Source of the DNA: an uncultured Bacillota bacterium
Lineage (GTDB): Bacteria; Bacillota_I; Bacilli_A; RF39; UBA660
DNA length: 22,483 bases
Assembly (NCBI GenBank): GCA_947246355.1
Contig: CAMXQX010000014.1
Coordinates: 1-22,483, forward strand
Direction: 5' to 3'
In this document: positions 9,117 to 13,098 of the stretch, in pieces
How the letters are laid out: the number at the start of each line of letters is the position of its first letter
Numbering within the stretch: the first letter of the stretch is position 1
Translations under genes and position numbers: made by a program
Notes under the pieces: generated by a model
What the model was told of the DNA's origin: nothing
The model's input: the letters and a program-made list of their open reading frames with translations, nothing else
The model's database searches: none

Positions 9117-9524
9117 TTACTCCTGCACGTGGGCACATAAGGAATATATTTCTTCATTGATTTTATGCCTATTTAAATCAGAATAAGTAACTATAGGGAA
9201 ACAATTTGTAGGTAAATCGAAGGTACTCACTTTTTTATACTTCAATATCTCAACAAACTTTGTTTGTTCTTCAAGTGCAATTTCATTTATATTTTCAATG
9301 AGTAAAATAACAGAACCCTTTTTACTTTTTTCTATTAATTCTTTATACCATGTTGGTGGACAAAATTCGACATTCTCATAATGTCCATTTAGCTCAAGTC
9401 GATCTATATTTGCACTTATTGCTACCACATTCGTAAAAACAGTCGCAGGAAGATTTTGAATTAATAAGGGAGAAATTCCACACTGTAAGTAGCTTTCTAA
9501 TAAATTAAATCTATCTTTATTCAT
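9117..9524 (-). CDS. Degenerate AAA+ core paralogue (no P-loop) of the upstream ATPase
   Basis: ATG 9524 overlaps the upstream stop as ATGA, with AAGGAGG 9 nt upstream. The 135-aa product aligns by eye with residues about 230-400 of the 9521..11266 product. CPPTWYKELIEKSKKGSVILLIENINE matches VPPTWYIKLKEKCEKEPNKIHIVFFDELTN, DLPTNCFPIV matches RLPANARIVA, and CAHV matches FAHV. The Walker A position reads QNLPATVF and Walker B DE is replaced by EN. Confidence 0.7.
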   Translation of the reverse strand: MNKDRFNLLESYLQCGISPLLIQNLPATVFTNVVAISANIDRLELNGHYENVEFCPPTWYKELIEKSKKGSVILLIENINEIALEEQTKFVEILKYKKVSTFDLPTNCFPIVTYSDLNRHKINEEIYSLCAHVQE

Positions 9525-11266
9525 TTTCTAATTCCTCCTTGGGTATTTTCCTCAGACATTTGTATTTCAAGTAAATACTCTAACCTAGACGTGTCTCCAT
9601 GAACCCACATTGATTCAAAGACAGCTCTTGGTTCTGCACCTAATTGTTTCATAAAATCTCTAACTACCTCAAAATGCTCTTCATCTACAGAAGACAAACC
9701 AGCAGCTGTTGTGAATTTTTGTGCAACATTCATTTCTAAATCCTTCTCTGTGTAATTGTGCTGCAGTACATCCTCAATACGTATAACTTGAAGACTGGAA
9801 AATGCAACAAAGTCTCTTGTTAACTCTTCTCCAATGAGGGCTCGAAGCATTTCTTGCTTTTTCGTTTTATATAATACTTTGGATGCCATCTCCCATTTTC
9901 TTGGGTCGGCATTTGGTTTTTCTCCTGTATAAGGTGTTCTTAATACATCTTGTCCACTATAAGACTTGTAAGCCACATAAGCATAAATGGATGGATGAAT
10001 TTTTGGTTCTACCTTTTCTTCTTGATAGTCCAATCTTTCATAATTTTCTCTTGGTGTAATAGCCCATTTTAACCAGCTATCAACAGTCGTTTGAATATAT
10101 ACATGCGCAAAACGATTAAATAATGGTTCTGCCATTTGATTGGCAGCAAGAGAATCATTCAAATCATTTCCAGCTGCCACAATTCTTGCATTGGCTGGTA
10201 GCCTCCATTTCCCATCCACTTCTCCGTCCAAGACAATGTTAAATGCCATTCCTTGAATACTTGGTAGTGCATTGGTGAGTTCATCAAAGAATACAATATG
10301 GATTTTGTTAGGCTCTTTTTCGCATTTTTCCTTTAGTTTTATGTACCACGTTGGTGGTACATCCATCATTTCTCCCGTTGCAGCATTATATACACTTTTT
10401 CCATTTAAACTGTTTGGTGTTGCATTTCTCATGTATATAATTTCACAGTCTGGATCCAATTGTTTTACTCTTGCGGATTTTCCCTCACTGGATCTACCAT
10501 GTAAAAATACAGAAACATTGCTTTCGATGGCCCCTTTAATGATATCCTCCTCAGAGACACAATTAAAATCAAAATCAAAATCATAAGGATTTTTCCTTTT
10601 TATTCCGCTATCTATATTATTTATTGGCTCTGTATTTTGTAAAATCCTATTAGATACAATCTCTTTAGCAAAACAAGTATCTATAAATTGCTTTATATCA
10701 GTTCTCTCAAAATCCCCTTGGTAATTGTTATTATTCTGAAATTTTACACCTGAGAAAATCAGTTTCTTAGAAAGCGCTATATTGGATACTCTATCTACTA
10801 GCCATGTGATAGGCTCAACCAAAACCCAATAAGCTTTTCCCTCTTCAATTTTTCTTCCATCGGATAGAGTCTGTCCACTACAATTTCCATCCGCTACAAA
10901 ACGAATACACTTCTTTCCATTATATTCGTATTCCATATGTTCTCTTGCCACAAACGAACGACTATACTCTTGATAATTTACAGAGTCCGTTGTATACTTT
11001 TTTCCTGTTCTATTTATCCTATCACTTTGAAATGCACGTTCAAAATCTGCTTCCTCACTGGCACGCAAAATAGACTGTGGATATTCACCATAGTCGACTT
11101 CTATTATTTGACCCCTGCCTCTCACTTCGTTCGAGGAGATGTTTTGGATTAAAGAGTAAGGTAAAGCTGGGCGTGCCCCAACATACCGTAAATTAACATT
11201 GTATAAGTAACCATTCCCATCATTGTCAACAGCGCGCGCGAGCACAAACGGGGCACAAGAGCGCAA
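9521..11266 (-). CDS. MoxR/AAA_5-class AAA+ ATPase with lectin-like N-terminal domain; 5' end uncertain
   Basis: Walker A is FLHGRSSEGKS, Walker B is IHIVFFDELT and sensor-1 is ARIVAAGN, with a helical lid/C-terminal domain. Residues about 55-215 (IIEVDYGEYPQ...YWVLVEPITWLVD...LSKKLIFSGVKF...DIKQFIDTCFAKE) resemble a Firmicutes lectin/FGE-like extracellular-type domain. The track start 11266 is a TTG with no SD. The first in-frame ATG is at 10936, and an SD-like GAGAGGCAGGGG lies at 11123-11112. Confidence 0.75.
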   Translation of the reverse strand: MRSCAPFVLARAVDNDGNGYLYNVNLRYVGARPALPYSLIQNISSNEVRGRGQIIEVDYGEYPQSILRASEEADFERAFQSDRINRTGKKYTTDSVNYQEYSRSFVAREHMEYEYNGKKCIRFVADGNCSGQTLSDGRKIEEGKAYWVLVEPITWLVDRVSNIALSKKLIFSGVKFQNNNNYQGDFERTDIKQFIDTCFAKEIVSNRILQNTEPINNIDSGIKRKNPYDFDFDFNCVSEEDIIKGAIESNVSVFLHGRSSEGKSARVKQLDPDCEIIYMRNATPNSLNGKSVYNAATGEMMDVPPTWYIKLKEKCEKEPNKIHIVFFDELTNALPSIQGMAFNIVLDGEVDGKWRLPANARIVAAGNDLNDSLAANQMAEPLFNRFAHVYIQTTVDSWLKWAITPRENYERLDYQEEKVEPKIHPSIYAYVAYKSYSGQDVLRTPYTGEKPNADPRKWEMASKVLYKTKKQEMLRALIGEELTRDFVAFSSLQVIRIEDVLQHNYTEKDLEMNVAQKFTTAAGLSSVDEEHFEVVRDFMKQLGAEPRAVFESMWVHGDTSRLEYLLEIQMSEENTQGGIRK

Positions 11267-11293
11267 ACACGCAAAAAATAAATTTTCTTCTTA
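11165..11293 (-). other. GC-rich, NNY-codon-rich segment resembling a DGR variable/template repeat (in frame with the AAA+ gene)
   Basis: The frame opens after TAA 11293-11291 and encodes EENLFFACLRSCAPFVLARAVDNDGNGYLYNVNLRYVGARPAL. Region 11231-11272 has 28/42 G+C, including the alternating run GCGCGCGCG. In 11227-11180, 12 of 16 codons are NNY (N/D/G/Y/V). A 14-nt G/C-rich block, GGGGCACGCCCAGC, follows at 11179-11166. There is no ATG or SD. Confidence 0.4.
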
Positions 11294-11318
11294 ATTAAAG
11301 GCTTTTCAACCTAAAATC

Positions 11319-11903
11319 CTATTTTTTCATTTTCCATCTTGCATCATCACTCTTTTTCCAAGCAACGATTAGATTAATTGCCTCTGCAAGTTGCATAGAA
11401 ATCTGTTTGTATTGCTTTTTCAAAATACAGTTGGAGTTGAAAGCAAGCAAGGCCATATACCCTAAAAGTTTTAAGTTAACAATTGCTTCTTTTTGATACT
11501 CTTCTCTTTTGGATTTGTTGTTAGAAGACTCCATTCGAATAAAATTAGCTTTTAATAAATACTCTATCGTATCTAGACAATAATTTTGCATCCGATTGAC
11601 GAAGACACCTCTAAATTTTTTAGGGGATTTTTCTGTTACTGCAATCACATAAGCTTTTAATTTTTTAGTAACGGTAATTACCATTAAATCATTAGCATTG
11701 AAAGGAATTTGGTCTATCACCTTTCTATCCTTGTCTTCTTCTATGAGTCCTATTTTTACTTTTGTTTCATCAAACTTTTCATCCTTAGCCATGGCAAGGC
11801 CTTTCTTTGTTGCAAGAACTTCTTCTATATTGTTTGCTCTTTGTGTTACAATTTCTATTTTTTTGGGGATTTTTAAATGATTCGATCTACTGACTTGATA
11901 CAT
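11319..11903 (-). CDS. Avd-like / 23S-rRNA-IVS-type four-helix-bundle protein with about 80-aa N-terminal extension
   Basis: ATG 11903 lies 16 nt after the fmt stop and is preceded by GAGGTAAGGA. An alternative start is MAKDEK at residue 38. The C-terminal 115 aa (KLKAYVIAVTEKSPKKFRGVFVNRMQNYCLDTIEYLLKAN...KEAIVNLKLLGYMALLAF...KKQYKQISMQLAEAINLIVAWKK) follow the helix pattern and the P-[KR]-K ... A-[NG] ... W landmarks I recall for Avd / PF05635-family proteins. Confidence 0.5.
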   Translation of the reverse strand: MYQVSRSNHLKIPKKIEIVTQRANNIEEVLATKKGLAMAKDEKFDETKVKIGLIEEDKDRKVIDQIPFNANDLMVITVTKKLKAYVIAVTEKSPKKFRGVFVNRMQNYCLDTIEYLLKANFIRMESSNNKSKREEYQKEAIVNLKLLGYMALLAFNSNCILKKQYKQISMQLAEAINLIVAWKKSDDARWKMKK

Positions 11904-11919
11904 TCCTTACCTCTATCAT

Positions 11920-12897
11920 CTATTCAAAAATATCTCCTAGCAAATCTTCTTTGTTTTGAATGCCATTCAAAAAATCACTTGCTTTCCTCTTTGGCTTTCC
12001 TTCCATTTGTATTTCGGTTAAAATAATTTCGCCATTTCCGCATTTCACACCTATTCCGTCCGAATATAAATTACAAATTGTCCCATCAATTTTATCAGGA
12101 TAATAGGCATCCCCTATTCTCACCTTCCAAATCTTCATTCGCCTTCCTCTTAAAATAGCATACGCTCCAGGATAACTATTTAACCCTCGAACTTGATTAT
12201 GAATAGCATATTTTGTTTTACTAAAATCAATTTTTTCTTCTTCTTTTTTGATTGTAAACGCGAATGTTGCCTCCTCATGATTTTGAGGGATGCGAGGAGC
12301 AGTTTTATTAATAATACTTGGAAGAGTCTCTAAAAGTAAATCACGACCAAGTATTTTTAACTTATCATGCACCATAGATGCTGTATCCTCTTCTCCAATG
12401 GCAATTTCTTTTTGTGCAATCATATCTCCCTCATCCAATTTCGAATTCATATGCATAATGGTAATCCCAGTTTTCGTCTCTCCATTCATCACAACTCTAT
12501 GAATAGGAGCCCCTCCTCTATATTTAGGAAGCAAGGAAGCATGAACATTAATACAACCATATTCTGGTAAAAATAATAGTTCATTTGGAACCAAATTTCC
12601 ATAGGCACACGTGATAATCAAGGTTGGTTTTAATGCATAAATTTCATCGAGTGCTTCACTTAATTTTTCTGGTTGTAAAACTAAAATTGTATGGTCATTC
12701 GCACACTGTTTGACAGGGGAAAACGTTACTTGTCCATTTCTACCATTGACCCTGTCTGGTTGGGTAATGACTGCTCTTACATCATAATTTTCAATGAGTC
12801 CTTCTAAGACAGGTACAGCAAATGCAGGCGTACCCATAAATAAAATACGTACCTTCTTCTCTATTTTTATTTGTTCAATATTCAGTTCTGTATCCAT
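11920..12897 (-). CDS. fmt: Methionyl-tRNA formyltransferase
   Basis: Motifs present: RILFMGTPAFAVPVLEGL, INVHASLLPKYRGGAPIHR and the C-terminal Fmt domain. Start trimmed to ATG 12897 (MDTELN...), with GAAAGGA 9 nt upstream. ATG 12933 lacks an SD. Confidence 0.92.
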   Translation of the reverse strand: MDTELNIEQIKIEKKVRILFMGTPAFAVPVLEGLIENYDVRAVITQPDRVNGRNGQVTFSPVKQCANDHTILVLQPEKLSEALDEIYALKPTLIITCAYGNLVPNELLFLPEYGCINVHASLLPKYRGGAPIHRVVMNGETKTGITIMHMNSKLDEGDMIAQKEIAIGEEDTASMVHDKLKILGRDLLLETLPSIINKTAPRIPQNHEEATFAFTIKKEEEKIDFSKTKYAIHNQVRGLNSYPGAYAILRGRRMKIWKVRIGDAYYPDKIDGTICNLYSDGIGVKCGNGEIILTEIQMEGKPKRKASDFLNGIQNKEDLLGDIFE

Positions 12898-13098
12898 ATT
12901 TCTTGATCCTTTCTTTTTACATTGTATTTTCATTTTCTAGCAATCTTTATACTACACTTATTTTAGATAAAATTCAAAATAATATTATAAAACTAGGATA
13001 TTTGTGCAGATGGCAGCCACATTTGTTCATTTTCTCCTCATTTTAATTTATTGTTTTTTAAATTTATATTTTCTATTATTTTTTTATCTAGAATTATT

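Follow-up and report, generated by a model that had tools for sequence, protein, structure and literature searches.

The avd gene (accessory variability determinant) described here is most probably an orphan of a decayed chromosomal diversity-generating retroelement (DGR). A deletion between the repeats TR and VR would have stripped it of its reverse transcriptase (RT), and we read it as a recent leftover rather than as a new partner of the ATPase encoded next to it, with a probability of roughly 0.87. The gene lies in a 22,483-nt stretch of DNA, hereafter the window, with priA and fmt on its upstream flank and the gene for an AAA+ ATPase downstream (Table 1). A preliminary description of this DNA had offered two alternatives: an orphaned DGR component, or an Avd-fold protein recruited as a nucleic-acid-binding or adaptor subunit of the ATPase-VWA module. 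The first of these is borne out, as orthologues of the gene sit in complete cassettes and the window carries a deletion scar.

Table 1. Features of the avd locus, in window coordinates.
Feature	Position	Strand	Remarks
DUF2201 protein, 481 aa	7693..9138	-	metallopeptidase-like N-domain (PF13203, 1.3e-31), VWA-like C-domain (PF09967, 2e-12)
Small partner ORF, 135 aa	9117..9524	-	conserved in part of the family; strong RBS AAGGAGGAA; ATG overlaps the ATPase stop
Target gene, 581 aa, 5'-truncated	9521..11266	-	remnant of the VR-bearing lectin-like N-domain, beta-rich domain, MoxR-like AAA+ ATPase, helical C-domain
Single fused TR/VR repeat, putative deletion scar	11158..11240	-	diversified (VR-like) A-sites
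avd-TR spacer (TR-upstream flank) homologue	11241..11318	-	alignment to L037, L091, L118
avd, 194 aa	11319..11903	-	DGR accessory variability determinant; profiles, fold, charge
fmt	11920..12933	-	upstream flank; synteny anchor common to the sister species with avd-TR-RT

Profile matches, fold and charge identify the 194-aa ORF as a genuine DGR Avd. Its ATG start is preceded by an SD-like GAGGTAAGGA. The protein matches NCBIfam NF033474 (DivGenRetAVD; E 6.7e-8, 32.8 bits, residues 74-183 on profile positions 2-103 of 104) and Pfam PF22296 (bAvd; E 1.2e-4, 23 bits, profile positions 4-106 of 107), such that residues 74-185 cover essentially the whole profile length. Both scores fall below the curated cut-offs, 80 bits for NF033474 and 40 bits for PF22296, which marks a divergent subfamily. 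Among 12 family members tested, NF033474 matches all and PF22296 matches 10, and some homologues carry a precomputed PF22296 assignment. The protein is also basic, with a pI of 9.7 overall and 9.84 for the bundle; the mean for DGR Avds is 9.5 +/- 0.7 (Wu et al., PMC5758913).

Structure prediction gives a consistent picture. An AlphaFold2 monomer model built on a 12-sequence alignment (mean pLDDT 69, and 70-85 across the bundle) contains four long helices at residues 72-91, 95-121, 127-156 and 162-193, the bundle that the preliminary description had read in the C-terminal part of the ORF. The best PDB fold matches are 2RLD and 2GSC of the 23S-IVS family (probability 1.0, TM-score 0.62-0.71 on the target), and the best viral matches are proteins annotated as Avd-like. 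Because the Foldseek E-values are weak (0.02-0.3; about 0.3 for 2RLD and 2GSC), we base the fold assignment on rank, probability and TM-score and on the profile matches as well. A PDB sequence search with the Avd family profile returned nothing relevant, its sole match being an enterocin (E 0.098). The likeness to Avd and to 23S rRNA IVS proteins proposed earlier thus stands for the Avd profiles and for the IVS-family folds but not for IVS sequence: neither PF05635 nor TIGR02436 matches at E <= 0.1. The resemblance to IVS proteins is one of bundle fold only, and the gene lies between fmt and the ATPase gene, outside any rRNA IVS.

The N-terminal extension beyond the bundle, also claimed earlier, is real. 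It spans residues 1-70, ahead of the basic four-helix bundle at about 72-193, and forms two shorter helices in the model. It is conserved throughout the RT-associated family, with Q3, R6, L10, K11, P13 and K14 invariant in RT-bearing orthologues as well. Compared with bAvd of the Bordetella phage BPP-1 DGR, the window protein shares the basic four-helix bundle and the full-length profile match, and its orthologues are likewise encoded directly upstream of a TR and a DGR-type RT. It differs in its sub-cut-off scores, in the conserved extension of about 70 aa and in having lost TR and RT.

The avd family is large, with 826 matches of about 193-195 aa, the best 120 of them at 65-80% identity. Within the window's own order it is patchy, occurring in 11 of 151 sampled genomes (the window's included), all of 0.8-1.4 Mb. 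A scan of species-representative genomes found 199 relatives with the family, and we surveyed the loci of the best 80, classing them by the sequence downstream of avd. These 80 are mostly animal-gut MAGs labelled uncultured Bacilli, Tenericutes or Clostridia, with a few labelled Alphaproteobacteria. Downstream of avd, 64 loci have a full-length RT, 4 an RT cut by the contig end and 5 a broken RT; another 4 are too short to judge and 3 have no RT. An RT therefore adjoins avd in 73 of the 76 informative loci.

Intact loci share one gene order: avd, TR, RT, target, often a small ORF, and a DUF2201-VWA gene. The RT is 340 aa long, matches RVT_1 at 5.9e-20 and carries the motif LGNQSSQ. The target is a 640-750-aa homologue of the window's 581-aa ORF. 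The preliminary description had proposed surveying homologues for their neighbours, and these prove to include both RT and AAA+/VWA genes, as parts of one DGR cassette.

Repeat comparisons carry the adenine signature of a DGR. The TR, about 80 nt long, lies between avd and RT and recurs within the target gene, in the 5' portion. Ungapped alignment of TR/VR pairs from more than 55 loci gave 630 mismatches at TR adenines against 84 elsewhere, and much of the non-adenine mismatch comes from the 3' end, where TR consistently has GATTCAC and VR has GCTTTAC, analogous to IMH*/IMH. The relatives thus have an RT, separate TR and VR copies that differ at TR adenines, and an intact target. We conclude that loci with the avd-TR-RT-target order are a bona fide DGR family and that the MoxR-like ATPase next to avd is its target.

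In an AlphaFold2 model of an intact target orthologue, from L048 (656 aa; mean pLDDT 77), the VR (about 74-100) falls within a confidently predicted N-terminal domain, residues 8-110. A beta-rich domain (about 117-260), an AAA+ core and a helical C-terminal region come after it. The model matches the folds of MoxR-type NorQ, also in NorQ-NorD(VWA) complexes, and of CbbQ; MCM and McrB are further matches. AAA_5 is matched in 15 of 21 target homologues (best 1.2e-6) and weakly in the window's own ATPase; with the NorQ and CbbQ fold matches, this upholds the earlier reading of the downstream gene as an AAA+ ATPase. DUF6273 and Fib_succ_major are matched weakly, in 4 and 2 of the 21 homologues. 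The DUF2201 gene is conserved 3' of the target in relatives and encodes the VWA partner of the MoxR-like ATPase, so the window too has a MoxR-like AAA+ core with an adjoining VWA-domain partner. No PADLOC model matched Avd, the ATPase, the small ORF or DUF2201. The window's 135-aa ORF has weak similarity (29% over about 90 aa) to the AAA+ core of the L019 ATPase.

At the window, the same cassette is reduced to fragments that align to its two ends. The 78 nt past the avd stop correspond to the flank upstream of TR in relatives; the alignment is close for the first ~50 nt and loosens toward the repeat. A single repeat follows, with a 5' GC block CGCGCGCGCTGTT and a VR-type 3' end, CCCAGCTTTACCTT where TR has CCCAGATTCACTTT; it terminates in the VR-type GCTTTACC and not in the TR-type GATTCAC. 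Sequence past the repeat aligns to the VR-downstream coding sequence of relatives. By protein alignment the target ORF is short of its first ~75-90 residues, and the TTG listed as its start lacks an SD and falls within what was once non-coding TR flank. In the sister species, locus L118 occupies the same genomic position and still carries fmt (88% aa), avd (80% aa), TR and RT. The structure of the scar, the missing pieces and the sister locus together point to excision of the ~1.6 kb between TR and VR. Judged from these alignments, a TR x VR deletion most probably removed TR, RT and about 75 target codons.

The missing pieces are absent from the rest of the genome as well. Neither RVT_1 nor the sister-species RT as a query found an RT in the window or in its 1.34-Mb, 92.7%-complete assembly, which extends the earlier remark that no RT adjoins avd. 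The same assembly also lacks a second repeat copy, a TR-type 3' end and any N-terminal fragment of the target. The species-specific TR flank had no match in a scan of JGI metagenomes.

Alleles within the species preserve a record of recent DGR activity. We examined 9 of the 14 contigs on record for the P0001 avd and 5 of the 7 for the P0002 avd, each from a different sample, and RT is absent from all of them. Seven P0001 contigs from other samples are letter-identical to the window across the repeat while their flanks differ by 0.3-0.7%, and this invariance beside diverged flanks fits a frozen VR. Another allele, L026, differs from the window repeat at 11 positions (11227, 11221, 11216, 11212, 11210, 11209, 11205, 11203, 11191, 11190 and 11185), where L026 always has A and the window has G or T. 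The repeat content of L026, AAC AAT AAT GGA AAT AGA AAC TAA AAC AAT ..., is nearly that of the sister-species TR in L118, in-frame TAA included. The P0002 strains carry a third set of A-to-N changes in the repeat, with an in-frame TAG, and their flanking genes are ~1% diverged from the window's. The three fused-repeat alleles thus differ from one another at TR-adenine positions only. A background of ~1% predicts fewer than one difference in 83 nt, and the repeat differences are therefore DGR footprints.

Between alleles avd has 3 synonymous and 2 non-synonymous substitutions, too few for a selection test, and it carries no disabling mutation in any of them. With only these 5 substitutions, the gene would be intact here because RT loss was recent; we infer that Avd is functionless at this locus and persists for that reason alone. 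Without an RT, the alleles are most simply explained by three excisions that arose separately in ancestors intact until recently; the crossover would lie in the 5' GC block for the window and P0002 alleles or in the 3' block for L026. The deletion would then have occurred more than once in the species. A fused repeat is also found in L051, from another genus, where it carries a stop; this is an independent excision of the same kind.

Two further features of these alleles concern the ATPase gene. About 45 of the 73 differences between L026 and the window cluster in ~320 nt of its beta-rich domain (window 10520-10841, minus strand), and avd and the small ORF are identical between the two. This patch in L026 looks like an import by recombination. 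In P0002 the ATPase gene turns into unrelated sequence ~500 nt in. The contigs L113 and L114 both end 899 nt past avd, L115 and L116 end sooner, and the P0002 contig ends fall shortly past the switch to the unrelated, AT-rich sequence, which suggests that a repeated or mobile element is inserted in the gene.

Combining these observations, we propose the following course of events. The ancestral cassette would have had the order avd, TR, RT, target, (small ORF), DUF2201-VWA that is still intact in most related gut Bacilli. In it, Avd and RT would copy TR RNA into adenine-mutagenised cDNA, which would replace the ~80-nt VR in the lectin-like N-terminal domain of the MoxR-like AAA+ ATPase. Deletion between the direct repeats TR and VR, ~1.6 kb apart, would have taken TR, RT and the first ~75 target codons. 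This would leave avd, the avd-TR spacer, a single fused repeat whose 3' end is of the VR type, and a target gene that has lost its 5' end and has no ribosome-binding site of its own. The route may have been homologous recombination or slippage between the short identical GC-rich blocks at either end of the repeats. Alternatively, aberrant retrohoming with cDNA running into the avd-TR spacer may have given a product that is indistinguishable by sequence alone.

Some observations count against reading avd as an orphan. An assembly that is 92.7% complete leaves room for an RT on an unassembled piece or a co-resident phage. The Avd profile scores below the curated cut-offs and the freedom of avd from disabling mutations weigh on the same side. 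No intact allele was seen among the same-species contigs examined, so that the three RT-less ones call either for as many independent deletions or for some diversification once the deletion had occurred. The cassette might accordingly still be active, with an RT located elsewhere (in the unassembled 7%, on a phage or in a second cassette) acting in trans on the fused repeat. Such rewriting of an RT-less satellite target would, if true, explain three alleles that differ at TR adenines only; it would also suit the unmutated TR content of L026 and the VR-type (IMH-like) 3' end kept by the fused repeat, and one related MAG does have two cassettes of this family (L064 and L096). Yet the window's own genome has no RT, second repeat or TR-type 3' end, its target is short of both ~75 N-terminal codons and start signals, and its allele is identical in seven contigs despite the divergence of their flanks, the pattern of a frozen rather than an active VR. 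We regard an RT acting in trans as improbable.

The second alternative of the preliminary description, that Avd serves the AAA+/VWA module without RT as a nucleic-acid-binding or adaptor subunit, appealed to the extra N-terminal extension and gains from the intact avd with good SD in all RT-less alleles and from the constant linkage of avd to ATPase-VWA genes in its family. That linkage exists because the ATPase is the DGR target, and the extension is a trait of RT-associated orthologues too. Avd and ATPase also come apart: in other lineages with a broken or missing RT, avd is sometimes broken too. G085/L019 has pseudogenes for both avd and RT but an intact ATPase (628 aa), small ORF and DUF2201, and avd is likewise broken in L107 and L110; in the P0002 allele, avd persists although the ATPase gene is cut ~500 nt in. 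Intactness of avd in the alleles carries little weight, as the ~1% divergence since the loss is too little to expect decay. This alternative is unsupported, and we hold it to be very unlikely. Scarcely credible, finally, is an RT-less layout produced by the assembler through collapse of TR and VR. Repeats can be collapsed in MAG and metagenome assemblies, and the TR/VR direct repeats are ~80% identical. Their exactly shared blocks, however, are about 13-17 nt, below usual assembly k-mers; the same junction recurs in independent assemblies of at least 14 samples from three sources (MAG, Logan and ENA); and RT and the N-terminal part of the target are missing from the entire bin. A recent orphan of a TR x VR deletion thus remains our reading of the avd gene.

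Elsewhere in the family, several loci depart from the standard cassette. In L064 (7001-8625) 15 nt separate avd from a full RT, which leaves no space for a TR, and a target gene is missing downstream; this MAG also contains a complete cassette, L096, on a different contig. Six loci (L039, L062, L065, L067, L072 and L106) have a second copy of the lectin-like-domain/AAA+ target gene downstream and appear to be multi-target DGRs. Four loci from MAGs labelled Alphaproteobacteria (L109-L112) carry the avd family at ~50% identity, three of them with the full avd-RT-target-DUF2201 order, and L110 is visibly GC-rich; they reflect either cross-phylum transfer or mislabelled bins. In L047 (5270-8713) an insertion with three consecutive ORFs (436, 315 and 326 aa) cuts the TR after ~37 nt, and RT and target are absent downstream of it. 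Read by eye, at least the last of these ORFs looks like a tyrosine recombinase, and the insertion is possibly a recombinase-in-trio element.

Stop codons form a further peculiarity of the family's repeats. Stop-prone codons are avoided in canonical TRs. Here, the TRs of 24 of 50 loci (L036, L037, L042, L048, L050 and L053 among them) contain, at recurrent positions, one or two stops (TAA, TAG or TGA) that are in frame in the VR register. Such a stop persists in the VR of 12 of 50 species representatives, so that the target ORF ends after about 75-96 aa. Adenine mutagenesis, which turns these codons into Y, W, L, C or S, is thus needed to open the target frame. The pattern suggests that the DGR doubles as an on/off switch.

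Two sets of published systems bear comparison with this family. Inactivated DGRs have been described in which RT is lost to nonsense mutation, frameshift or IS insertion with TR and VR intact (Schillinger et al. 2012, PMC3521204). The window's DGR is likewise disabled and recently active, with A-type differences only, but here the TR-RT segment and the 5' end of the target appear to have been excised to leave one fused repeat, a route not listed among those classes. Ternary vWA-MoxR-VMAP conflict systems linked to DGRs are known from cyanobacteria and gammaproteobacteria (Kaur et al. 2020, PMC7159879), and they too combine a DGR with a MoxR-type AAA+ ATPase/VWA pair and a lectin-like hypervariable domain. 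Those systems occur in multicellular bacteria and carry the VR on the vWA protein, in a fused C-terminal FGS domain. In the avd family, by contrast, it is the ATPase that carries the VR, in a fused N-terminal DUF6273/Fib_succ_major-like domain; the metallopeptidase-like DUF2201 protein serves as the VWA partner, no VMAP was seen, and the hosts are gut Bacilli with small genomes (0.8-1.4 Mb). An N-terminal VR is rare among catalogued DGRs, at 3 of 372 (Wu et al., PMC5758913). The avd family is thus a variant of the DGR-plus-MoxR/VWA theme. Our literature search found no published description of an avd-MoxR-DUF2201 DGR family and no paper joining a DGR with DUF2201 or with RF39.

By itself, the orphan avd is a case of ordinary gene decay and not evidence of a new Avd function. 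It led us to a large DGR family that spans ~200 species-level genomes of gut Bacilli with small genomes. This family carries the DGR-plus-MoxR/VWA theme of multicellular cyanobacteria over to reduced, unicellular bacteria of the gut. It also documents a clean route of DGR death, TR x VR excision, which we place at least twice across genera and probably three times in one species, and the adenine footprint dates the RT loss as recent. We consider the family and its decay route to be of moderate interest. With low probability, TR x VR excision might also be a frequent, built-in exit route that repeatedly freezes or kills cassettes of this family. For annotation, the lesson is to look for a fused repeat wherever an Avd-like gene lacks an RT.
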